Positions 1,468 to 35,353 of a DNA stretch of 35,353 bases are shown one piece after another. The stretch is from the IMG/VR virus record IMGVR_UViG_3300049215_000478, positions 1 to 35,353 of that record; one strand, given 5' to 3'. The position numbers and the translations under genes were made by a program. Origin of the DNA: a virus. Below the pieces are notes generated by a model. That model saw only the letters and a list, made by a program, of their open reading frames with translations. It ran no database searches and was not told where the DNA came from. Within the stretch, counting starts at the first letter, position 1. The number at the start of each line of letters is the position of its first letter.

Positions 1468-1618
1468 TATTTACCCCATCAATTTTTTTTAATGCTGATT
1501 CTGCTTCTTCTCTTAAAATTTTATCCAAACGCTCTGTTATTTTTGCCTTAAACCCAGGAATGTTTAACAAACTCATTACAAAAGCTTTATTTTCTTCTAG
1601 CCATTCTCTATCACTCAT
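1454..1618 (-). CDS. small hypothetical protein (54 aa, below the ORF-track cutoff)
   Basis: ATG at 1618 overlaps the upstream stop (ATGAGTGA). It translates to MSDREWLEENKAFVMSLLNIPGFKAKITERLDKILREEAESALKKIDGVNNENK and fills an otherwise empty gap. Confidence 0.5.
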   Translation of the reverse strand: MSDREWLEENKAFVMSLLNIPGFKAKITERLDKILREEAESALKKIDGVNNENK

Positions 1619-2267
1619 TTACAAGATCCTTTTTAATTAATTCAAAATCTTTAACTCTAATATCTTCTATTGCTTCAATTTGATATTCGTTTATTAATTC
1701 ATTCCAAACTTCAAGAGCACGCTCAGGAGATTTATTCTTAATGGAAGTTAGAAGATTTTTAATAATAGTTATTTGATTGGAATCAATAGGTTTGTTTTGT
1801 TGTTCTTCTATATGTTTTTGTTCTTCCACGCCGTCATCATCAAATTCTTCAGTAGGAATAGCACATAGATTGAGAACCGCATATCTTTTCATGTAAGTTA
1901 AAGCTGCGCCTTTACCTTGAGATCCTGGCTTTTCAGATTCCAAAAGACATTTATCCTGAATGTATTGGCCCGAAATAACATGCGTAAGTCTAGTAACAAG
2001 AAATTCTAAACCCTCTTCCCATTCTCGGTTATGCCAAATAGCTATCTTTCTCTTCCATAAAGATTTTTGTACAGCCTCATAAATTTCTTCCAACTTGGCA
2101 TATTTCGATTTATTGTGGGTATTTATTCCACTTTTTCCAGTAGGTTTAAAATCCCAACAAGCTTCAATAAATGCTTCACCAAATTGTCTAATATCATCAG
2201 ATTGGGAACGAGAATTACTTCTAGTCCATTCTATTGGCCAATCTAATCGTTCTTCTTTATTCTCCAT
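1611..2267 (-). CDS. ERF-family single-strand annealing protein (paralog 1)
   Basis: Erf-like core: NKSKYAKLEEIYEAV..., then GQGKGAALTYMKRYAVLNLCAIPTEEFDDDG (compare P22 Erf SYARKY..GLFGIDD..D.D). Confidence 0.75.
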   Translation of the reverse strand: MENKEERLDWPIEWTRSNSRSQSDDIRQFGEAFIEACWDFKPTGKSGINTHNKSKYAKLEEIYEAVQKSLWKRKIAIWHNREWEEGLEFLVTRLTHVISGQYIQDKCLLESEKPGSQGKGAALTYMKRYAVLNLCAIPTEEFDDDGVEEQKHIEEQQNKPIDSNQITIIKNLLTSIKNKSPERALEVWNELINEYQIEAIEDIRVKDFELIKKDLVNE

Positions 2268-4061: not shown

Positions 4062-4742
4062 ATGGAAGCAAGGAGATATAGATCTGAAGAAATAAATCTG
4101 ATAATGGGCGCATTGGCTAAAGCACAAGGTTCATACAAACCTCTTATTGCAAACGAGGATTTCGCAGGACGCAAGTATTCCAATCTTCAAGCTATAAGAG
4201 AAGCCACACGTGATTCATTGTCAGCAAACGCATTAGCATTTTACCAATACATAGAGTTATTGGATGAAGGAAGTGGAGCAGCTTTGCTTCATACCATTTT
4301 GGGACATGAGAGTGGACAGTGGATATCAAGTTGCGCCAGAGTTATTAAATGTAAAAACCAACGGGATACTTCCAACAGCTATGAGATAGAAAAACGGGTG
4401 CATGCATTAATGGTACTTGGAATAGCTCCTTCAGAAAATGATCCTATTTGTTTTGATGATAATGGAGAAGCTTTGGCAGAACAGGCTTTAGTAGAAACTT
4501 TTAGAAAACCTATGGATTCCAAAAAAGAAGAACTTAATAGGGATAATGTAATAAATAAAACAGAATATAATGAACTTATGATAGAGCTTGATGGATATCC
4601 TGATATAGCAAAAGACATTATGCAGGTTTATGAAATACAAACTATAGCCGATTTACCACGAGAAGAGTATCATAAAGTTAGAGCTAAAATTCTTAAAATA
4701 AAAAGAAATATAGAAGAATTTGAAAGAAAAAGGGCACGATGA
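4062..4742 (+). CDS. ERF-family single-strand annealing protein (paralog 2)
   Basis: LIMGALAKAQGSYKPL..GRKYSNLQAIREATRDSLSANALAF...LHTILGHESGQWIS...HALMVLGIAPSENDPICFDDNGE matches the Erf pattern. Confidence 0.75.
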   Translation: MEARRYRSEEINLIMGALAKAQGSYKPLIANEDFAGRKYSNLQAIREATRDSLSANALAFYQYIELLDEGSGAALLHTILGHESGQWISSCARVIKCKNQRDTSNSYEIEKRVHALMVLGIAPSENDPICFDDNGEALAEQALVETFRKPMDSKKEELNRDNVINKTEYNELMIELDGYPDIAKDIMQVYEIQTIADLPREEYHKVRAKILKIKRNIEEFERKRAR

Positions 4743-4942
4743 ATAAAGAAGAATTAATAAATTATGTTAAAGATCAGATTCATCTTGGTATTCGAGATGC
4801 TTTATCGGAATTATCTAAAAAAGGAATCCATGTACACGTAGAAGGACCTTTAAAATTTACTATTACCGTAGATAATATGGAAATTAATCCTGATTTATTT
4901 GAAAACAATGAAGAAGTTTTAAAAAAATTAAGTGATAAATAA
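4739..4942 (+). CDS. hypothetical protein (67 aa)
   Basis: ATGA overlap with the erf-like gene. Confidence 0.6.
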   Translation: MNKEELINYVKDQIHLGIRDALSELSKKGIHVHVEGPLKFTITVDNMEINPDLFENNEEVLKKLSDK

Positions 4943-5115
4943 TGAAAAAAGAGTGTAAATGTAAGCCATTTTGTATGGGGCCTAAATATTGCGGAGCAAA
5001 ATACAATACCATGGTTATTCATAAAGATGAAAATGGTAAACCTACTTGGTTTAGACAAAAAAGTTCAGATTGTTCTTCTCCCGAATGGGAAAAAATTGTT
5101 ATTCCAAAAAAATAG
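4942..5115 (+). CDS. small Cys-rich protein (57 aa, below the ORF-track cutoff)
   Basis: TAATG overlap with the previous gene. Translates to MKKECKCKPFCMGPKYCGAKYNTMVIHKDENGKPTWFRQKSSDCSSPEWEKIVIPKK and ends just before a terminator hairpin. Confidence 0.5.
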   Translation: MKKECKCKPFCMGPKYCGAKYNTMVIHKDENGKPTWFRQKSSDCSSPEWEKIVIPKK

Positions 5116-5156
5116 AAACTTTTGGTGAACATTGCGTTACTGATTCCCAAAAAATA

Positions 5157-5183
5157 CCACCCTGTATCTCTCCTATAGGGTGG
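5157..5183. terminator. Bidirectional hairpin between convergent transcription units
   Basis: CCACCCT(GTA)...(TAT)AGGGTGG stem. It sits between the end of the plus arm (5115) and the end of the minus late operon (5238). Confidence 0.6.
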
Positions 5184-5237
5184 TAAAATTCTATATATTT
5201 TTAGATTTTTTACAAGTTATATTCTCGTTGTCATGAA

Positions 5238-5423
5238 TTATTCTACATAGATAGGATAATATTTAATCCTATTATTTCGAATTCTGACAGGCATCCAAAT
5301 AACAATTGTTTTTTCACAATTCAATTCTCTAAGAGTTTCCACAGAAGGTCCTTCATCTCTAAATTTAAGCGGATTGTTACACCCGCTTAAAAAAAGAGTG
5401 AGGACCAATAAAAATTTTTTCAC
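5238..5423 (-). CDS. small lipoprotein (61 aa, GTG start)
   Basis: Signal plus lipobox MKKFLLVLTLFLSGC; AAGGAG RBS upstream of the GTG. Confidence 0.65.
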   Translation of the reverse strand: MKKFLLVLTLFLSGCNNPLKFRDEGPSVETLRELNCEKTIVIWMPVRIRNNRIKYYPIYVE

Positions 5424-5541
5424 TACTCTCCTTTGACATAACTAATGTTATCAGACAGTTACCTCTCCACATCCTCGATTCTATTTGTTAATAGATAGCA
5501 TTTATTTCTTATTGTAATCATAACGTTACATCCAGTAACGT

Positions 5542-5913
5542 TTAGTCTCTTAAACTTACTTTAAGTAGATTACTGTAATGCAGATTATTACGGATATGGA
5601 TCGGCATATGGAATGGTTTATCCAGTAAATCAAAAAATTGTTTAGCTTCTTTCCAACATTTACGTGCTTTATCATTATAAACCTCAACAAGCCGTTCATG
5701 ATGGTCTAAGTATTCACCAAGCTCATCAGAGTTCATTAAATGAAACGGTTTATACTGTTTTAATTCTTCAGGCATCGCAAACCTAGGAAGCTTACAGTGA
5801 TAAGTATAATCATCAAAAATAGTATAAAAATCATTACTAAATATTATATTTTTATTAACTGCGTTCAGGTTGAATGCTAATAGCAGTAATAGTGTCGTTA
5901 AATATTTAATCAT
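5542..5913 (-). CDS. secreted hypothetical protein (123 aa)
   Basis: N-terminal signal-like MIKYLTTLLLLLAFNLNA. Followed by hairpin AACGTTAC-n5-GTAACGTT at 5521..5541. Confidence 0.65.
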   Translation of the reverse strand: MIKYLTTLLLLLAFNLNAVNKNIIFSNDFYTIFDDYTYHCKLPRFAMPEELKQYKPFHLMNSDELGEYLDHHERLVEVYNDKARKCWKEAKQFFDLLDKPFHMPIHIRNNLHYSNLLKVSLRD

Positions 5914-22063: not shown

Positions 22064-22458
22064 CAATCTGTTACTTTTATGACCTATTTCTAGGCGGGGA
22101 AGCCTATTGCACTTCCCTCATTGTGTTTCCACAATGTTCAGAGCACCGAATCTCACATTGCCGTGAGTCTTCTCGCTTGCTACGTTCAGGCTGACTAGGG
22201 TAAAAAGCTATCCATTCTTTAGTTTTTATATCTCTCATCCAGATGATATTTTCATTTATATTAATCCAACATACCCATTCAGATATATTAGTATCATCTT
22301 TTGTAGGATTTCGATTCGATAAAATATTGCCTTCCATAATTTCTTTTTTAATGTATTCGCTTTTTTTAAACCACATATCTTGCCCCTTGTTACCTTCAAC
22401 TTAATGGTTAGGCTTCCAAGTCTATCAGAGAAGATTTATAGACCCCATATTTTTGTTT
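22064..22458 (-). mobile_element. Putative group I self-splicing intron interrupting the major capsid gene
   Basis: Exon 1 ends in U. GACCCU (22464..22459) pairs with GGGGUC (22446..22441), forming P1 with a U.G wobble. The insert ends in G (22064). Removal joins CCU|GUA in frame. GNRA-capped helices lie at 22119..22136 and 22083..22094. Confidence 0.75.
22104..22376 (-). CDS. intron-borne ORF (90 aa), function unknown
   Basis: AAGGGG RBS 6 nt before the ATG. It sits in the AU-rich middle of the insert and its 3' end runs into the structured core. No GIY-YIG, HNH, LAGLIDADG or His-Cys box motif is visible. Confidence 0.5.
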   Translation of the reverse strand: MWFKKSEYIKKEIMEGNILSNRNPTKDDTNISEWVCWININENIIWMRDIKTKEWIAFYPSQPERSKREDSRQCEIRCSEHCGNTMREVQ

Positions 22459-22767: not shown

Positions 22768-22966
22768 ACACGTACTCCCAAAAATACAAACAATTAATAA
22801 TTTGAACACTGTGAGCTAGGCGAACACTCATACAGCCTATGAGCTGGCGATGGCTCAATACAGCCTTGGGGTGACGAGTCCCATACAGTCGAATTTTTTG
22901 AGATGGTGAATCTCGATACAACCAAAAAAAGTATATTAAGGGAAAGTCGTAAGAAGCAAGAAATAA

Positions 22967-23272
22967 TTAGAGAGATTAAGTAAAGATGAATTATATCGCC
23001 TCTACGTTACTTCATCCAAAGAAGATGGTGAAAATGACCGACAAATTCTAGTAAAAGAATTATTTAGCAAACGACTTAAATATTTAATTCCTTCTAGCAA
23101 TATAGATGGTCGTCAACGCAACGATAAAAAACAACTTAGAGTATATATACTGCCTCCAATTGAAGTAGCCAGAAAAGAATTCTGCAAATCTTATAGATGC
23201 AATTATGAATTGTTATTTGGGACAAACAAAGCAAATGATGAGTCAAGTGAGACGGACCATGAGTCAAGTTAG
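22967..23272 (+). pseudogene. Start-less 101-codon frame resembling the C-terminal tail of P4/D5/VapE-type primase-helicases
   Basis: Open from the TAA at 22964 to the TAG at 23270 with no ATG/GTG. Translates to ...DELYRLYVTSSKEDGEND..LVKELFSKRLKYL...GRQRNDKKQLRVYILPPIEVARKEFCKSY.... Recognition is from memory only. Confidence 0.3.
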
Positions 23273-23505
23273 TATATTTTACAAAACATGCACGTAGAGC
23301 TAGATGTTCCGAGTGAGCCAGGTGAGACATGGTTAGTTAAAGTTTTATTTTTGTTATAGCTATTATTGAGAGACGTAACAAATATAATTTTATTTTAATT
23401 TTTTTAACACGACTCACTCAACTCACTTGGAACAAGACGCTACTAATCGTGGTTTTCAAATATAAACACCTTGACTCGCAACTTAACTCACCCGACTCAC
23501 TTATA
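23237..23505. repeat. Long imperfect inverted repeat (arms about 95-100 bp) around an AT-rich core
   Basis: GTTCCGAGTGAGCCAGGTGAGAC (23306..23328) matches the reverse complement of 23411..23433 at 17/23. GAGTCAAGTTAGTATATTT (23261..23279) matches the reverse complement of 23458..23479. The core 23341..23405 is about 80 percent AT. Confidence 0.7.
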
Positions 23506-23561
23506 TTTTGTACAGTTAAATTATTGATAGAAAGCGAAGTTCGGAATTTTATAGATAGGAG

Positions 23562-23597
23562 AGGGCCATAAAAGAGCTACACAAAAAAAATGGCCCT
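23562..23597 (-). terminator. Hairpin after the scaffold gene
   Basis: AGGGCCAT / ATGGCCCT form an 8-bp stem with a T-rich loop on the minus strand, 19 nt after the stop at 23616. Confidence 0.45.
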
Positions 23598-23615
23598 TAC
23601 CCAATGAAGATTTTC

Positions 23616-24350
23616 TTAACCCATTTTATATTGGTTAACTCTTTTCATTATCTCATCTCTTTGTTCTTTTGTTAATACTCTGCGATCGTAATCTCCAAGC
23701 CTAGCAAGAGGAGTATCGGCTGTTTGTGCATCACTGGAAGCAGCAGATCTTGGCTTAACTTTATTTTCTTCTATTTTACGATTTTCTTGGGCATAAACAT
23801 CTTGAGAGCCCATACCATATTTTAAAAAGTCGTATGCCGCATCACAACGATCTGAGATATCTGGATTAGACATAATGGATTTATAAACTGCTGGTTTACT
23901 TTTTTGAAGACGTAACAAATTTTCTTCGTTTACTACTGTATCAAAATCATTATATTTAGCTTTTGCTTTAATTTCAGCAAGCGAAACTTCATAACGATAA
24001 TGCATTTCATCTAACTTTTTTTTGTTTTCATCATTCTGTTTTTTTAAGGCTCTATAATGTTTTTTATAATCTTTGCCTTCAATAAAACTATCGTCACTGA
24101 TTCCAATATCATCATCCTCAATCTGAATCTTTTGAGAAGGTTGGTTTTGATTATACATATTAGACCGCAAGATCTGCTCAAGTTCATTAGCTCTTTTTTC
24201 GGCATCTAATCGTGCACGTTCAGCTGCTTCAGCACGTTCACGCATTGCCCGAAAATTTTGTTCTTTTGCAGATTCTGTTGGTTGTTGTTCTGGTTTTGTT
24301 TCTACTTGTGCTTCTTGGGAATAAGTATTGGTTTCCATTTCATTCAACAT
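23616..24350 (-). CDS. scaffolding-like protein (244 aa)
   Basis: Highly charged, coiled-coil-like sequence (RERAEAAERARLDAEKRANELEQ), positioned upstream of the capsid gene. Confidence 0.55.
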   Translation of the reverse strand: MLNEMETNTYSQEAQVETKPEQQPTESAKEQNFRAMRERAEAAERARLDAEKRANELEQILRSNMYNQNQPSQKIQIEDDDIGISDDSFIEGKDYKKHYRALKKQNDENKKKLDEMHYRYEVSLAEIKAKAKYNDFDTVVNEENLLRLQKSKPAVYKSIMSNPDISDRCDAAYDFLKYGMGSQDVYAQENRKIEENKVKPRSAASSDAQTADTPLARLGDYDRRVLTKEQRDEIMKRVNQYKMG

Positions 24351-24853
24351 TCATTTTCCTTACTTATTTTTATTACTGCATCTACTTTTTCGCCATTTTC
24401 ATGCTTTACCCACTCTAACAGTTCTCCAGATTCCATCAAAATGACGAACTTGGTTAAATCTGAACATTCTTTATCTACTAGATATTTATGTTTATTTCGA
24501 AGTATATGATAATACAAAATTATATCGGGAATCGACCATAAAAATTCTAAATGATCGCTATTATTATGATATTTCCATACACATTGTTTGTAAGTAGGCG
24601 TTGGACAGGATCTTCTGGCAAATATAAGCGTACGTGGCGTATCTCCAAATCTCTCTTTTTTAATAAGCATAACTACATAAAAGTTACGGTTGGTATAAAG
24701 AGGTTTGGTTTTTGCTTCAGTAATGGTGTTATAAATTTTTCGGAGTATATCGGGTTCCATTTCACGTCGGTATTCAATAACATCCGATTCCAATTCTAGG
24801 TTCTTAGATTGATGATCTAAGAGTTGTTGCCCATATGTTTTCTTATCAGTCAT
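24344..24853 (-). CDS. hypothetical head-module protein (169 aa)
   Basis: 7-nt overlap with the scaffold gene; no motif recognised. Confidence 0.6.
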   Translation of the reverse strand: MTDKKTYGQQLLDHQSKNLELESDVIEYRREMEPDILRKIYNTITEAKTKPLYTNRNFYVVMLIKKERFGDTPRTLIFARRSCPTPTYKQCVWKYHNNSDHLEFLWSIPDIILYYHILRNKHKYLVDKECSDLTKFVILMESGELLEWVKHENGEKVDAVIKISKENEC

Positions 24854-24876: not shown

Positions 24877-24896
24877 TCCCCCTACTTATAGGGGGA
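24877..24896 (-). terminator. Rho-independent-like terminator bounding the plus-strand moron
   Basis: On the minus strand, TCCCCCTA-TAAG-TAGGGGGA is followed by TTTTAT. Confidence 0.6.
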
Positions 24897-24991
24897 CTCA
24901 GGAAGAGCAAAGGATTGGTAATGAGTACACACAAATAAACTTTAAATTATCTATTTATTAAATACCTAATTTTTTTTAATAAAATAATTAT

Positions 24992-25020
24992 TTGACTGTT
25001 ATAAAATAAATCTTTAATAT
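24992..25020 (+). promoter_or_regulatory. Sigma70-like promoter of the DapF-like cassette
   Basis: TTGACT (24992..24997), 17 nt spacer, TAATAT (25015..25020). The ATG lies only 8 nt after the -10 and there is no SD. Confidence 0.6.
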
Positions 25021-25028
25021 TAAAGATT

Positions 25029-25895
25029 ATGGCACAACAAGAAAATCTAATTCCATGTTACAAAGCACATGGATGTCAAAACACGTTTATACTTATCGAT
25101 TTATTGGAAAATCCTTATCTTTATAATCCTACTTTTATAGATAAAGTTCATAAAATTTTAATTAAAGAAGAGTGTGATGATGCTTTGATTCTGTTGCCTT
25201 TATTTGTTGATAAAGATAATAGAATCATAATCCAAATGATAGTACTCGAGCCTGATAAATCCATAGCCTTTTTTTGTGGCAATGCTTCCAGGGTTGTAGC
25301 TAAATATCTACATCATAAATGTAACTTTTCTACCAACAAATTTGCACTTCATTCTTTAAGTGGAGACCATGATTTGTTCGTAGATAATGATAATTATGGA
25401 GTAAACATGCTCGCTACTACATTTAATCCTTTTCATAATAGTGTAGTAAACAAAGCATCGGATCATTTTAAGGAACGTAATGGTTTTTTTATCTCTGATT
25501 TTTCAAATGTCAGTTGGTATTTCACTCAAACCTGCGAGCCTCATTTAATTACTTTTTCTGATCTTCCTGTAGAACAGTTCGTTGATATAGGAATCCTTCT
25601 TAATACTCAAAAGAGGGATATATTTCCCAAAGGTATAAATATTAACCATGTAAGAATAATAAATAATTCAACAATTCAAGTTATTACTTACGAACGCGGT
25701 GTTAATCGTATAACTAAAGCTTGTGGAACAGGTGCTACATCCAGTGCAGTTCTTGCATACAGGCTCGGTCTTATATCTTCTTTTGAAGTAAATGTTAGGA
25801 TGCTGGGCGGTAACTTAAAAATAAAATGTGAAGATGACTATTCTCTTATGATTGGATCTGCTGAGATAAATCTTAATAATCCAATATATATATAA
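25029..25895 (+). CDS. diaminopimelate-epimerase-like (DapF-fold) two-cysteine PLP-independent epimerase/racemase
   Basis: YKAHGCQNTFILID (compare KMHG.GNDF..VD), FFCGNASRVVAKYL (Cys83), EPHLITF, VITYERGVNRITKACGTGATSSAV (Cys232). Both catalytic Cys motifs are retained. Confidence 0.8.
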   Translation: MAQQENLIPCYKAHGCQNTFILIDLLENPYLYNPTFIDKVHKILIKEECDDALILLPLFVDKDNRIIIQMIVLEPDKSIAFFCGNASRVVAKYLHHKCNFSTNKFALHSLSGDHDLFVDNDNYGVNMLATTFNPFHNSVVNKASDHFKERNGFFISDFSNVSWYFTQTCEPHLITFSDLPVEQFVDIGILLNTQKRDIFPKGININHVRIINNSTIQVITYERGVNRITKACGTGATSSAVLAYRLGLISSFEVNVRMLGGNLKIKCEDDYSLMIGSAEINLNNPIYI

Positions 25896-25903
25896 GGTAG
25901 ATC

Positions 25904-26866
25904 ATGAAATTACGTTCAATGATAGCAAGTAGCTATATGTTTTTTGCTGCGCTAAATGCAACATATACAGATGTCTCATTCAATTTTTCAAAGTTGAATT
26001 CGGATGCTTATAAACTTGCAATGAGAATGCAAAGAGCTGATAACAAAAAAGAAACAATACAATTTGTTTTTATTCCAATGGCTACAATAACTGCCAATGA
26101 TTCAGATTTTTATGAATACGCTAAATCCATGATAACCAAAAGAAGTCATGAGATCAGTGTTGTAGATATTTGGCCGCTAAATGGACAAGTAACTAAAAAT
26201 ATTGTTAACAGTTTATTCCCTTATTCTAAAACAGATAAAAGTTATCAATCTCTGCAAGATCAGGCAGAAGAAATGATAAATGTTAATGGGACCAGGCTAT
26301 TCGTTCTGGATTTGAAGAATAATAACCGAAAGTATAATGATTACAATCAGATTAAAGAATCTGAAGAGATTGTTCAGAAATTCTTGAGATCGCCTTCCAA
26401 AAGACGTCCTATCCATGACTTTTTAGATAAATACAAAATAGAGTTCTTTATTCGTGAAGGTTTATTGAAATCTAAACTTATAAATGATGTGTTTACCAAT
26501 GTTCAAGCTCAATATTTTGATGGATGTAGCAGTGGAAGAATGCTTCTTTGTGAGCTTTGTGAATTCATTATGAATGGTTTTAAACGTGGATATATTGTAA
26601 GCATGTTATCTCCTAAATATAAAACAATACTTTCATTACATCCTTCTGAATATTTTGCCCATATTTCTAATAAAACTGATTTCAACATGGATTTAACTAA
26701 TATTTTAGATTTGGCAAAAATTAATACTGCATATTCTCCGCTTTACAAAGATTTATATGGAAAAGATGGTTTATATTATAAAACCATTTCTTCTTTTTTT
26801 AGATCAAATCATTATTTCAATGATGTTACTGAGATTTCACGTATAGAAGTTGGAAATATTAATTAA
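25904..26866 (+). CDS. secreted/exported hypothetical protein (320 aa)
   Basis: Signal-like MKLRSMIASSYMFFAALNA; starts 8 nt after the DapF-like stop; very AT-rich. Confidence 0.65.
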   Translation: MKLRSMIASSYMFFAALNATYTDVSFNFSKLNSDAYKLAMRMQRADNKKETIQFVFIPMATITANDSDFYEYAKSMITKRSHEISVVDIWPLNGQVTKNIVNSLFPYSKTDKSYQSLQDQAEEMINVNGTRLFVLDLKNNNRKYNDYNQIKESEEIVQKFLRSPSKRRPIHDFLDKYKIEFFIREGLLKSKLINDVFTNVQAQYFDGCSSGRMLLCELCEFIMNGFKRGYIVSMLSPKYKTILSLHPSEYFAHISNKTDFNMDLTNILDLAKINTAYSPLYKDLYGKDGLYYKTISSFFRSNHYFNDVTEISRIEVGNIN

Positions 26867-26870
26867 ATAA

Positions 26871-26897
26871 TAAGGGCCTCTGTTTAGGAGGCCCTTA
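26871..26897. terminator. Hairpin closing the plus-strand moron (bidirectional position)
   Basis: TAAGGGCCTC-n7-GAGGCCCTTA, a 10-bp GC-rich stem 5 nt after the stop at 26866. Confidence 0.65.
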
Positions 26898-26944: not shown

Positions 26945-27058
26945 TTATTTTGGAGTATAGCCACCCCATTCACCTTTATCCCATCCTGGATCTAATTCAC
27001 ATTTAGTGGATGAAATAAAAGAAATAAATAAAAAGATAGCAATAAAGATCTTTTTCAT
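26945..27058 (-). CDS. possible small secreted peptide (37 aa)
   Basis: AGGAAAG upstream of the ATG; MKKIFIAIFLFISFISSTKCELDPGWDKGEWGGYTPK. Short, so weak. Confidence 0.3.
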   Translation of the reverse strand: MKKIFIAIFLFISFISSTKCELDPGWDKGEWGGYTPK

Positions 27059-27140
27059 TTTCTTTCCTTTTCAAAAATTAATATTACAAAAATAATAAGG
27101 CCTACCAATACATATGGTAGTAAATAACCTATTAACGAGT

Positions 27141-27410
27141 TCATTTCTTTTTCTTTTTGGGAACCTTGGCACCAACTTTTCTAGCTTCACTTAAAGCTAT
27201 GGCTACTGCTTGTTTTCTACTTTTAACTTTAGGCCCTTTTTTAGATCCACTATGAAGCTTGCCTTCTTTGTATTCTCTAAGAACCTTTTCAACTTTGGTT
27301 TTGGGTTTGGTTTTTTTCTTTTCAAGTTTCTTTATTTTTTTATGGATACCTGGAGATACTTTTTCTTCCAAGTAATCCTCTTCACGATGAGAAATTTTTC
27401 TTTTAGCCAT
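27141..27410 (-). CDS. Lys-rich basic protein (89 aa)
   Basis: EYKEGKLHSGSKKGPKVKSRKQAVAIALSEARKVGAK resembles a widespread small bacterial/phage protein family; poly-K tail. Confidence 0.65.
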   Translation of the reverse strand: MAKRKISHREEDYLEEKVSPGIHKKIKKLEKKKTKPKTKVEKVLREYKEGKLHSGSKKGPKVKSRKQAVAIALSEARKVGAKVPKKKKK

Positions 27411-35321: not shown

Positions 35322-35353
35322 ACATTTAATGACAGTCAGTATAGAAGCAATAT
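35322..35353. repeat. Terminal direct repeat identical to 1..32
   Basis: Exact 32-nt match to the window start. Confidence 0.95.

Follow-up and report, generated by a model that had tools for sequence, protein, structure and literature searches.

What is a gene for a diaminopimelate (DAP) epimerase-like enzyme doing among the virion genes of a phage, read in the opposite direction to them, and what could it and the gene behind it bring to the infected cell? The window (the whole stretch of DNA analysed, 35,353 nucleotides) is the complete 35.3-kb genome of an uncultured, podovirus-like phage, the 32-bp direct terminal repeat indicating that the contig is a complete circular assembly. Its portal protein is at most 24.5% identical to those of phage isolates, and megablast with 12 kb of sequence retrieved no close phage relative from GenBank. 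Most of the phage genes match no family; we identified two Erf-like genes, an SSB and an O-like/HTH protein, and recognized neither an integrase nor a repressor among them. At gathering thresholds Rfam has no match anywhere in the window; near the capsid-gene insertion there is none even at E ≤ 1.

The original prediction placed a plus-strand unit antisense between minus-strand virion genes, and this arrangement is confirmed. The two plus-strand ORFs, gene 1 (25029-25895, 288 aa) and ORF2 (25904-26866, 320 aa), are flanked by the minus-strand genes g169 (24344-24853) and g89 (27141-27410), with the portal, terminase and capsid genes close by. The left anchor, g169, is 30-62% identical across relatives and is followed by g244 and then the capsid gene; the right anchor, g89 (DUF6496, PF20106), is conserved across relatives and lies downstream of portal, g121, g49 and g106. 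In relatives whose portals are 50-80% identical, the genes run portal-g121-g49-(g106)-g89-gap-g169-g244-capsid, and among the closer ones the gap between g89 and g169 varies from 138 to 2936 bp, being 2287 bp here and only 138-155 bp in L021, L023, L027 and L080. The empty slots of relatives contain only a hairpin, and the filled ones contain unrelated antisense ORFs encoding signal-peptide proteins; DapF or ORF2 was found in none of the 80 related phage loci. The slot of the window also holds a small cargo ORF of 37 aa (MKKIFIAIFLFISFISSTKC...; 26945-27058, minus strand), with a signal-peptide-like N-terminus and the orientation of the virion genes. The g89-g169 interval is a variable cargo hotspot, or moron slot, into which the two genes are inserted.

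The cassette is present in one phage contig only, and its GC content (29-31%) is below that of the neighbouring portal region (~40%), as would be expected from an assembly chimera or bacterial contamination. We hold this explanation to be extremely improbable, given a 6.6-kb Logan contig (L001, from ERR9963788) that was assembled independently by another pipeline and covers both junctions at 100% identity; the small ORF is gene-called in it as well. Besides, the insertion falls exactly where relatives also hold cargo, the GC3 of the two cargo genes (0.21 and 0.22) fits the range of the phage genes (0.13-0.34), and identity to the closest bacterial homologues, in the alignments made by the search tools, reaches just 44% for DapF and 31% for ORF2, so that the cassette is no fragment of a known bacterium assembled along with the phage.

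The unit had been described as a self-contained moron, bracketed by two strong hairpins and equipped with a near-consensus promoter. Both hairpins are indeed more stable than shuffled sequences, but their T-tails lie on the minus strand. The left one (24877-24896; ΔG −19.3 kcal/mol on the minus strand, z = −3.9 vs shuffles) consists of CCCCC-loop-GGGGG with a minus-strand T-run behind it, and stands 24 nt ahead of where g169 starts, at the left edge of the slot. As hairpins of this same type, C5-loop-G5 with a T-run, are also found between g89 and g169 in cargo-free relatives (after g89 in the empty- or small-slot relatives L021/L023, L022, L011 and L080), it is probably a native phage inter-operon terminator or leader hairpin, outside the inserted unit. 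The right one (26871-26897; ΔG −21.0 kcal/mol and z = −5.1 on the plus strand, −18.2 kcal/mol and z = −4.2 on the minus strand, vs shuffles), with a 12-bp stem starting 5 nt past the ORF2 stop, has an A-run ahead of it, a U-rich minus-strand tail and, on the plus strand, no U-run behind it; it likely acts as a stop in both directions and would better suit the minus-strand transcripts coming from g89 and the small ORF. A further terminator-like hairpin on the minus strand (27102-27120, 6-bp stem and T-run) lies just past the g89 stop, at the right edge of the slot. The region has four terminator-like sites, all of them scored on the minus strand, and a plus-strand U-tract is absent at both 24877-24896 and 26871-26897.

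The promoter candidate, a sigma-70-like TTGACT-17-TAATAT (24992-25020, plus strand), is well placed, with a match to the consensus at 9 of 12 positions only. It is not above chance, since 10 sites of this 9/12 type are observed in the 3.2-kb region compared to 17.0 ± 3.4 in shuffles, and the term near-consensus was too strong. The ATG comes 8 nt past the end of its −10 element, which would make the predicted gene 1 mRNA leaderless or nearly so, and no Shine-Dalgarno sequence is present ahead of gene 1. With respect to the cargo genes of relatives, the window alone has the TTGACT element, and the upstream motifs of those genes, ...TAACCAC... and AGGATTT-N3-ATG, are absent from the DapF cassette. 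The unit is inserted antisense cargo and in this respect a moron in the sense of Hendrix; the promoter and the plus-strand terminator that would make it self-contained lack statistical support.

Phage morons are independent transcription units placed between conserved phage genes (PMC3594210), and the present unit resembles them as extra antisense DNA between genes that are neighbours in relatives, with a candidate promoter, a trailing hairpin and a slot whose cargo varies; it differs from them in that the cargo is a two-gene metabolic module and not a single surface, toxin or exclusion gene. We infer for this pair a promoter and a time of expression of its own: transcription would probably start at the weak sigma-70-like element, run antisense to the virion genes and independently of the late operon, and stop at the hairpin past ORF2.

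Gene 1 belongs to the DapF family of PLP-independent two-cysteine epimerases. The Pfam search that had been suggested for it gave 86.1 bits with PF01678 (cut-off 34.7), in two DAP_epimerase stretches, and TIGR00652 matches residues 11-280 with 147.4 bits (cut-off 114.65). Its nearest homologues, at 38-44% identity, form with it a clade from environmental Chlamydiales, KSB3 and Verrucomicrobia, which includes proteins that NCBI names DapF and whose TIGR00652 scores of 126-147 bits all exceed the NCBI DapF equivalog cut-off. The model for the bifunctional Chlamydiaceae enzyme, NF038284, scores 64.4 bits with the phage protein and 50-85 bits with clade members, below its cut-off of 350. No PHROG family matches gene 1, and no PADLOC defence model matches DapF, ORF2, g169 or g89.

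Like canonical DapF from E. coli and H. influenzae, the phage protein has two DAP_epimerase domains with the cysteines in the CGN and CGT/SGA loops. Cys83 (FFCGN), Cys232 (ACGTGA), GCQNTF and EPH were all found at the residues originally given. C83, C232, H172 and E222, corresponding to C73, C217, H159 and E208 of canonical DapF, are invariant in the clade, and the proximal site is kept throughout (N11, G74, N75, G218 and S/T219 becoming N18, G84, N85, G233 and T234). The description of a full DapF signature nevertheless went too far: EPH stands where canonical DapF has NPH, and inspection of the DAP-binding residues gave a divided picture, with the distal ligands N190, R209 and E208 kept as N204, R223 and E222 whereas N64, N157 and Q44 are replaced by E74, E170 and D51/A52. 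These replacements are clade-wide (N64 to E or G, N157 to E, Q44 to D or A), and position 157 is replaced likewise in 115 of the 124 aligned sequences from the clade and outgroups. With only ~25% identity to canonical DapFs, a phage-borne gene and a pairing with ORF2, the protein is, as judged from its sequence, an atypical DapF; its clade is divergent, and the distal pocket there has been remodelled and become more acidic.

The same alignment bears on whether the cassette is functionless hitch-hiking DNA heading for decay. Such a fate would suit a single occurrence, the lack of a significant promoter and the missing Shine-Dalgarno sequence ahead of gene 1. It appears very improbable in view of the coding sequences: neither ORF is truncated, each protein has every family-invariant residue, base composition is phage-like, and at 75 clade-conserved columns the phage DapF shows 6 deviations, all conservative and inside the clade range. 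The predicted catalytic apparatus of the enzyme is intact and gives no sign of decay; of the enzymatically competent DapF originally proposed, predicted competence stands, and identity with canonical DapF does not.

The second gene had been left uninterpreted, and we observed that it encodes the conserved partner of this DapF clade. ORF2 starts 8 nt past gene 1, its ATG being preceded by AAGG at a distance of 7 nt. A DapF homologue directly adjoins an ORF2-family gene in 17 of 17 non-redundant bacterial loci (one being cut by a contig end and one split into two ORFs), in most of them with a spacing of 8-16 nt or an overlap, and ORF2 is present in 17 of the 20 loci of this DapF clade. The bacterial locus L096 has the same DapF-then-ORF2 order and 8-nt spacing as the phage, and in a neighbour-joining tree the phage DapF clusters with the ORF2-linked bacterial DapFs. 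Pairwise identities of DapF and ORF2 do not correlate significantly (r = 0.27, p = 0.17), a comparison that says little either way, all pairs being about equally distant. Since ORF2 adjoins the DapF homologue in all 17 bacterial loci, the phage has captured whole a conserved two-gene bacterial module, and this strict pairing argues that the two proteins work together.

The ORF2 family comprises 146 representative clusters. Of its polar and aromatic residues, ten are invariant and two nearly so. The invariant ones are D88, D136, Y144, E185, G186, K189, C216, E220, K227 and Y281, spaced as E185-G186-x-x-K189 and C216-x3-E220, and all are in the phage copy, whose closest bacterial homologue is 31% identical. 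ORF2 has no match in Pfam, NCBIfam, PHROG, PADLOC or PDB sequences. An AlphaFold2 model built from 55 sequences is confident (pLDDT 92.6, pTM 0.91), compared to a pLDDT of only 47 for an earlier model from 3 sequences, and Foldseek found no fold match to it (best E 0.064 in PDB and 0.08 in BFVD, TM ~0.12).

Of two identities considered for ORF2, one was rejected and the other looks unlikely. A 70-residue local alignment with PTP-like phytases of the 'tyrosine phosphatase II superfamily' (4tvv, 7sdd) aligns D88..N93 and VLDxK..Y..I of ORF2 with ..DVYGGN.. and VLDLRQESHGY; this profile-vs-PDB match is not significant (E 0.54), ORF2 has no CX5R, Foldseek shows no phosphatase fold, and none of 55 ORF2 members matches the Pfam PTP-like phytase family. 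As for the chlamydial neighbour of dapF, we assume the C. trachomatis gene to be CT430 and the gene beside it CT429. The latter encodes a 329-aa protein specific to Chlamydiales, with a match to Protochlamydia at 8e-96 and a stated known conserved domain (PMC1403754; PMC3931295; PMC6426960). Compared by description, ORF2 is unlikely to be CT429, which is highly conserved and has a known domain, whereas ORF2 is fast-evolving and matches no Pfam family.

The N-terminus of the phage ORF2 is signal- or anchor-like, though weakly hydrophobic (KD 1.68). Hydrophobic N-termini are also found in its nearest relatives (P0122, P0123, P0124, P0126, P0127, P0129, P0133 and P0140), and those of near relatives often end ...M-E/Q, resembling the cargo proteins of related phages. 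ORF2 might accordingly be the actual cargo, exported or membrane-anchored and acting in lysogenic conversion or exclusion, just as the same slot in relatives carries antisense signal-peptide proteins, with the epimerase gene merely co-transferred because the two genes were adjacent in the donor. We regard this as improbable: most members of the ORF2 family are without a hydrophobic N-terminus, the DapF gene is fully intact with every catalytic residue retained, and the DapF-ORF2 pairing in bacteria is strict.

Which reaction the epimerase would catalyse is addressed by its distal pocket and by the bacterial neighbourhood of the module. In canonical DapF, N64, N157, N190 and R209 hold the distal carboxylate, and Q44 and E208 the amine (PMC8225329, citing Pillai 2006). 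With three of these six ligands replaced, including two of the three distal Asn, binding of a distal carboxylate should weaken. Amino-acid transporters often adjoin the bacterial module, with Na_Ala_symp in 6 loci (directly upstream in L002, L093, L101, L102 and L103) and AA_permease in 3. ArgR is carried in two loci: L099 has an ORF2-DapF-AA_permease-ArgR operon, and L090 has ArgR and AA_permease near the module. An SBP_bac_3 gene is near the module in L091, and a NhaC-type transporter in L085. The frequency of importer neighbours suggests salvage of an imported amino acid over a biosynthetic DAP step. This setting differs from that of E. coli dapF, whose context is presumably dapF-yigA-xerC.

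A racemase or epimerase of a substrate other than DAP, for example a basic amino acid (Arg, Orn, Lys) or alanine/glutamate, is a possible, though less than even, reading of the pair; together with ORF2 it would convert, in two steps, an amino acid taken up by the cell, and the phage copy would then rewire amino-acid or D-amino-acid metabolism. The original prediction had allowed for a different substrate, and the transporters and ArgR linked to the module in the loci listed above strengthen that alternative, as do the acidic residues D51, E74 and E170 lying exactly at the canonical distal carboxylate/amine site (residue roles from PMC8225329). Precedents exist on the DapF fold: DcsC, an O-ureido-serine racemase (7vdy), and PddB, a 2,4-diaminobutyrate racemase (PMC8225329), share with the phage protein the fold, the two-cysteine chemistry and a substituted distal site. 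PddB is reported to be non-equivalent at all three distal Asn positions, with Arg209 among the differences discussed (PMC8225329); this clade keeps R209 and N190. DcsC and PddB are encoded in antibiotic or polymer biosynthetic clusters, unlike this clade, which lies beside ORF2 and transporters. The bifunctional DapF/glutamate racemase of C. trachomatis, which resembles the phage protein as a PVC-group DapF with a remodelled pocket and both Cys, the His and the Glu, offers a further precedent, for glutamate racemization and for pocket remodelling that broadens or changes the substrate (PMC5885031). The pockets themselves differ, N63 being kept and V145 present in the C. trachomatis enzyme (PMC5885031) where this clade has E at both positions.

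Against a substrate other than DAP, the equivalents of R209, E208 and N190, residues that likewise hold DAP at its distal end, are strictly conserved, and the clade lies above the curated DapF equivalog threshold. On the grounds of that cut-off, of the DapF names given by NCBI and of the DapF homologue reported in Parachlamydia (PMC5885031), we read the enzyme in terms of DAP and the cell wall. Conversion of LL- to meso-DAP is put forward here as a proposal, because DcsC matched the phage protein (1.8e-13) about as well as the solved DapFs did (2e-15 to 1e-13). The literature searched yielded no characterized member of the clade.

DapF is a non-standard phage cargo, as had been surmised. Besides the missing PHROG family, pattern scans of the 2.9 M contigs of IMG/VR revealed no member of the DapF clade, and scans with the ORF2 alignment revealed no other viral carrier. 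GenBank phage records gave 20 DapF matches, all at ≤30% identity over the full length; these are no evidence of a phage DapF family, most being unannotated contigs or bacterial (Salmonella) WGS records. Within the data searched, the cassette occurs in one phage genome only.

The explanation that we favour, with a confidence somewhat better than even, is a bacterial operon captured in a moron slot, which would add capacity for D- or meso-configured amino acids for the cell wall, with meso-DAP as the leading candidate. The two genes would have been taken as a unit from a bacterial chromosome into the g89-g169 slot. The product of gene 1 would be a cofactor-independent epimerase in which C83 and C232 invert the alpha-carbon of an amino acid, and ORF2, the near-constant companion of this DapF clade in bacteria, would work on that same pool of metabolite, with the transporter found beside the bacterial module being supplied by the host. 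What the enzyme acts on and what the phage gains we infer: the infected or lysogenized cell would most likely gain a D- or meso-configured amino acid for its cell wall, the leading candidate being made from LL-DAP.

Going further, one may tentatively see in DapF-like and ORF2, usually with an importer, an undescribed two-enzyme module that makes a D- or meso-form from an imported amino acid other than DAP and is widespread among Chlamydiales-like bacteria and others that probably live with hosts. ORF2 would then have an enzyme fold not seen before, and the phage copy would show that the pair is portable and useful on its own. The phage may infect such a lineage, as the cargo and the cargo-like signal peptides resemble proteins of those bacteria; we would rate this whole picture as possible and speculative. 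To our knowledge, the phages described for chlamydiae are Microviridae only, and tailed phages of the lineage are essentially unknown.

Phage auxiliary genes acting on the stereochemistry of peptidoglycan precursors or D-amino acids are essentially undescribed. Should the pair consist of an ordinary DapF and a bystander neighbour, it would merely be an unusual moron cargo; an active epimerase would show that this step of cell-wall or amino-acid metabolism in the host is open to tuning by phages. The cassette also draws attention to a conserved and uncharacterized bacterial pair, a divergent DapF clade with ORF2, usually linked to amino-acid transporters in Chlamydiales-like organisms, in a setting of long-standing gaps in the D-amino-acid and DAP supply of these organisms, MurI and Alr being missing in many PVC bacteria (PMC5885031), and it offers biochemists this pair as a small, clonable two-gene unit.

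The window bears an exact 32-bp direct repeat at its ends (1-32 and 35322-35353) and is thus read as complete, a circularly closed assembly of ~35.3 kb, from a phage whose portal is at most 24.5% identical to that of isolates and in which no integrase gene was recognised. Two plus-strand ORFs separated by 8 nt, gene 1 (25029-25895, 288 aa) and ORF2 (25904-26866, 320 aa), lie between the minus-strand phage genes g169 (24344-24853) and g89 (27141-27410), beyond which are found the portal gene (phrog_156, E 1.3e-75), the large terminase and the capsid gene. Scanning IMG/VR with the portal protein gave 80 related loci (49-80% identity), and tblastn with the window proteins revealed a conserved gene order: terminase, portal, g121, g49, (g106), g89, gap, g169, g244, capsid. 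The g89-g169 gap measures 138-155 bp in four relatives (L021, L023, L027 and L080), 0.45-2.9 kb in other close relatives and 2287 bp in the window. Filled slots in the relatives contain unrelated ORFs, mostly antisense, whose products start with signal peptides (e.g. MKKxLLLSLLxSSxFSMEL); HMM searches detected neither DapF nor ORF2 in the 80 loci, and pattern scans with the clade alignments across the whole of IMG/VR found neither the DapF clade of gene 1 nor ORF2 elsewhere. A chimeric assembly is unlikely, since an independently assembled 6.6-kb Logan contig (ERR9963788) spans both junctions at 100% identity and the GC3 values of the cargo genes (0.21 and 0.22) lie inside the 0.13-0.34 span of the remaining phage genes.

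The original prediction described this unit as bracketed by two strong hairpins and driven by its own near-consensus promoter. Both hairpins are present and far more stable than shuffled sequences (26871-26897, plus strand, dG -21.0 kcal/mol, z-score -5.1; 24877-24896, minus strand, dG -19.3 kcal/mol, z-score -3.9), but on the plus strand no U-run follows either of them, and each of the region's four terminator-like sites scores on the minus strand. The empty slots of relatives contain a C-rich/G-rich hairpin with a T-run; as the left hairpin is of the same type and lies 24 nt before g169, we read it as native phage sequence outside the mobile unit. The promoter claim was not confirmed as worded: the candidate (TTGACT-17-TAATAT, 24992-25020, plus strand) matches at 9 of 12 positions, and promoter-like sites are fewer in the region (10) than in shuffles (17.0 +/- 3.4), so that it is plausible from its position alone. 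Its -10 element ends 8 nt upstream of the gene 1 ATG, with no Shine-Dalgarno sequence ahead of the gene; if this promoter is used, the mRNA would be nearly leaderless. The slot also holds a second, separate piece of cargo, a minus-strand ORF of 37 aa (26945-27058; MKKIFIAIFLFISFISSTKCELDPGWDKGEWGGYTPK) with a signal-peptide-like N-terminus, bounded by the 26871-26897 hairpin and by a minus-strand terminator-like hairpin at 27102-27120.

In eight relatives (L006, L008, L012, L013, L016, L020, L024 and L035), the slot cargo is a family of antisense ORFs whose signal peptides end in ...S/F-S-M-E/Q-L and which share two upstream motifs, TAACCAC at a distance of ~55 nt and AGGATTTnnA ahead of the ATG. 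Among the closest homologues of the phage ORF2, hydrophobic N-termini show similar endings (...A/S-M-E/Q), a likeness that is possibly a clue to the host lineage.

Elsewhere in the genome, the minus-strand capsid gene (exon 1, 22767-22459; exon 2, 22063-21428) is interrupted by a 395-nt insert (22064-22458), not a multiple of 3, which splits residues contiguous in relatives (..QNQDP|VLNETAEL..), contains an ORF of 90 aa (22104-22376) and is more stably folded than shuffled sequence (dG -88.3, z -2.8). It matches none of the Rfam intron models and is probably an unclassified self-splicing intron. The capsid gene is split at other positions in L022, L058, L061 and L064, where it has one or two inserts of 0.2-1 kb, and the large-terminase gene by ~0.76 kb in L008 and L021, a pattern suggesting that structural genes in this group of phages often harbour introns, inteins or homing elements. 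A stretch of ~850 nt (22810-23615) that separates g244 from the start of the capsid gene holds no ORF with a family match; the corresponding gap in relatives is 300-540 nt. The genome also encodes two Erf-like single-strand annealing proteins (1611-2267, minus strand; 4062-4742, plus strand) and an SSB (576-1007).

The gene 1 product scores above cut-off against Pfam PF01678 (86 bits, two domains) and the NCBI DapF equivalog TIGR00652 (147.4 bits; cut-off 114.65), and below it against the Chlamydiaceae bifunctional model (64 bits; cut-off 350). Alignments with DapFs of known structure and with Salmonella DapF show that C73, C217, H159, E208, R209, N190 and N11 are kept (C83, C232, H172, E222, R223, N204 and N18 in gene 1), and that N64, N157 and Q44 are changed (E74, E170 and D51/A52). 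According to PMC8225329, the distal carboxylate of DAP receives hydrogen bonds from N64, N157 and N190 and a salt bridge from R209, and the distal amine is held by E208 and Q44. Judged by these roles, the catalytic machinery and proximal site are intact and half of the distal-site ligands altered, two of them to glutamate. The proposal of a DapF-like moron is thus partly supported: it stands as regards a DapF-family cargo with intact catalytic residues, but its full DapF signature is an overstatement. The altered pattern is not peculiar to the phage copy: position 157 is E, and position 64 E or G, in 115 of 124 aligned sequences each. The nearest proteins (38-44% identity), annotated as DapF in 'Candidatus Vecturithrix' (KSB3), Chlamydiales, Chlamydiota and Verrucomicrobia MAGs, clear the equivalog cut-off only modestly (126-136 bits). 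Gene 1 departs from its clade at 6 of 75 clade-conserved columns, always conservatively, and is not in decay. On a neighbour-joining tree it falls among bacterial DapFs linked to ORF2, together with the KSB3 group; a Chlamydiales clade, likewise ORF2-linked, is sister to this assemblage.

ORF2 has no match in Pfam, NCBIfam, PHROGs, PADLOC or PDB sequences. A word-based search returned two homologues, both immediately 3' of a DapF homologue, and an exhaustive profile search a family of 146 representative clusters. Ten residues invariant in a 55-sequence alignment (D88, D136, Y144, E185, G186, K189, C216, E220, K227 and Y281) resemble an active site. The AlphaFold2 model from this alignment (pLDDT 92.6, pTM 0.91) gave no Foldseek fold match (best E 0.064 in PDB, with TM 0.12, and best E 0.08 in BFVD). 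PTP-like phytases (PDB 4tvv, 7sdd) were considered for residues ~86-150 (window 26159-26353) and rejected (non-significant E of 0.54, no CX5R loop, no fold match); this local alignment pairs the invariant D..N and VLDxK..Y motifs of ORF2. A signal- or anchor-like N-terminus is found in the phage ORF2 and its nearest relatives, and most family members lack this hydrophobic segment. It is possible, but less likely, that ORF2 would be the selected, exported cargo, akin to the signal-peptide proteins in relatives' slots.

A DapF homologue directly adjoins the ORF2-family gene in all 17 non-redundant bacterial loci examined (L002, L085, L086, L089, L090, L091, L092, L093, L096, L099, L101-L106 and L111), either as DapF then ORF2, 8-16 nt apart as in the phage, or as ORF2 then DapF, mostly overlapping. 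Conversely, 17 of 20 loci of the DapF clade have ORF2 (absent from L003, L097 and L107), and none was found at canonical-type DapF loci from the same metagenome scan; these neighbourhoods mark ORF2 as a conserved partner of the clade. Amino-acid transporters recur beside the pair: Na_Ala_symp at six loci, AA_permease at three, two of these with ArgR, and NhaC-type and SBP_bac_3 proteins at one each; the L099 operon reads ORF2-DapF-permease-ArgR. Ankyrin and WD40 proteins near some pairs hint at host-associated bacteria. In L089 (4925-5867; OY969428.1, a 1.73-Mb MAG chromosome), ORF2 is preceded by a DapF homologue in two overlapping ORFs (4925-5308 and 5280-5867), which reflect either an assembly frameshift error or decay of the DapF gene into a pseudogene next to an ORF2 that is intact.

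What can be concluded robustly is that a conserved bacterial two-gene module was captured by the phage, which carries it in its moron slot, in antisense orientation relative to the virion genes. Its function as a DAP epimerase is slightly favoured, given the curated-model score, the conservation of R209, E208 and N190, and a clade that is apparently the DapF of Chlamydiales-like organisms. The acidic distal pocket, the strict pairing with an enzyme-like ORF2 and the transporter/ArgR context suggest instead that the module may act on another substrate, converting an imported amino acid, with precedents in DcsC, PddB and the chlamydial Glu-racemising DapF. Note that the match of gene 1 to the O-ureido-serine racemase DcsC (1.8e-13) is nearly on a par with its matches to solved DapFs (2e-15 to 1e-13), and that the C. 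trachomatis bifunctional enzyme has another pocket, with N63 kept and V145 (PMC5885031), unlike the gene 1 clade.

Morons or auxiliary genes in phage structural regions are an already-known kind of element, and the novelty lies in the cargo: gene 1 belongs to no PHROG family, no other viral contig was found carrying the pair, and the literature searched contained no report of a phage DapF. A by-product of the analysis, moderately interesting and accessible to experiment, is the module itself, in which a DapF-like epimerase, ORF2 and a transporter go together; it is widespread, and its partner protein has an unrecognised fold.
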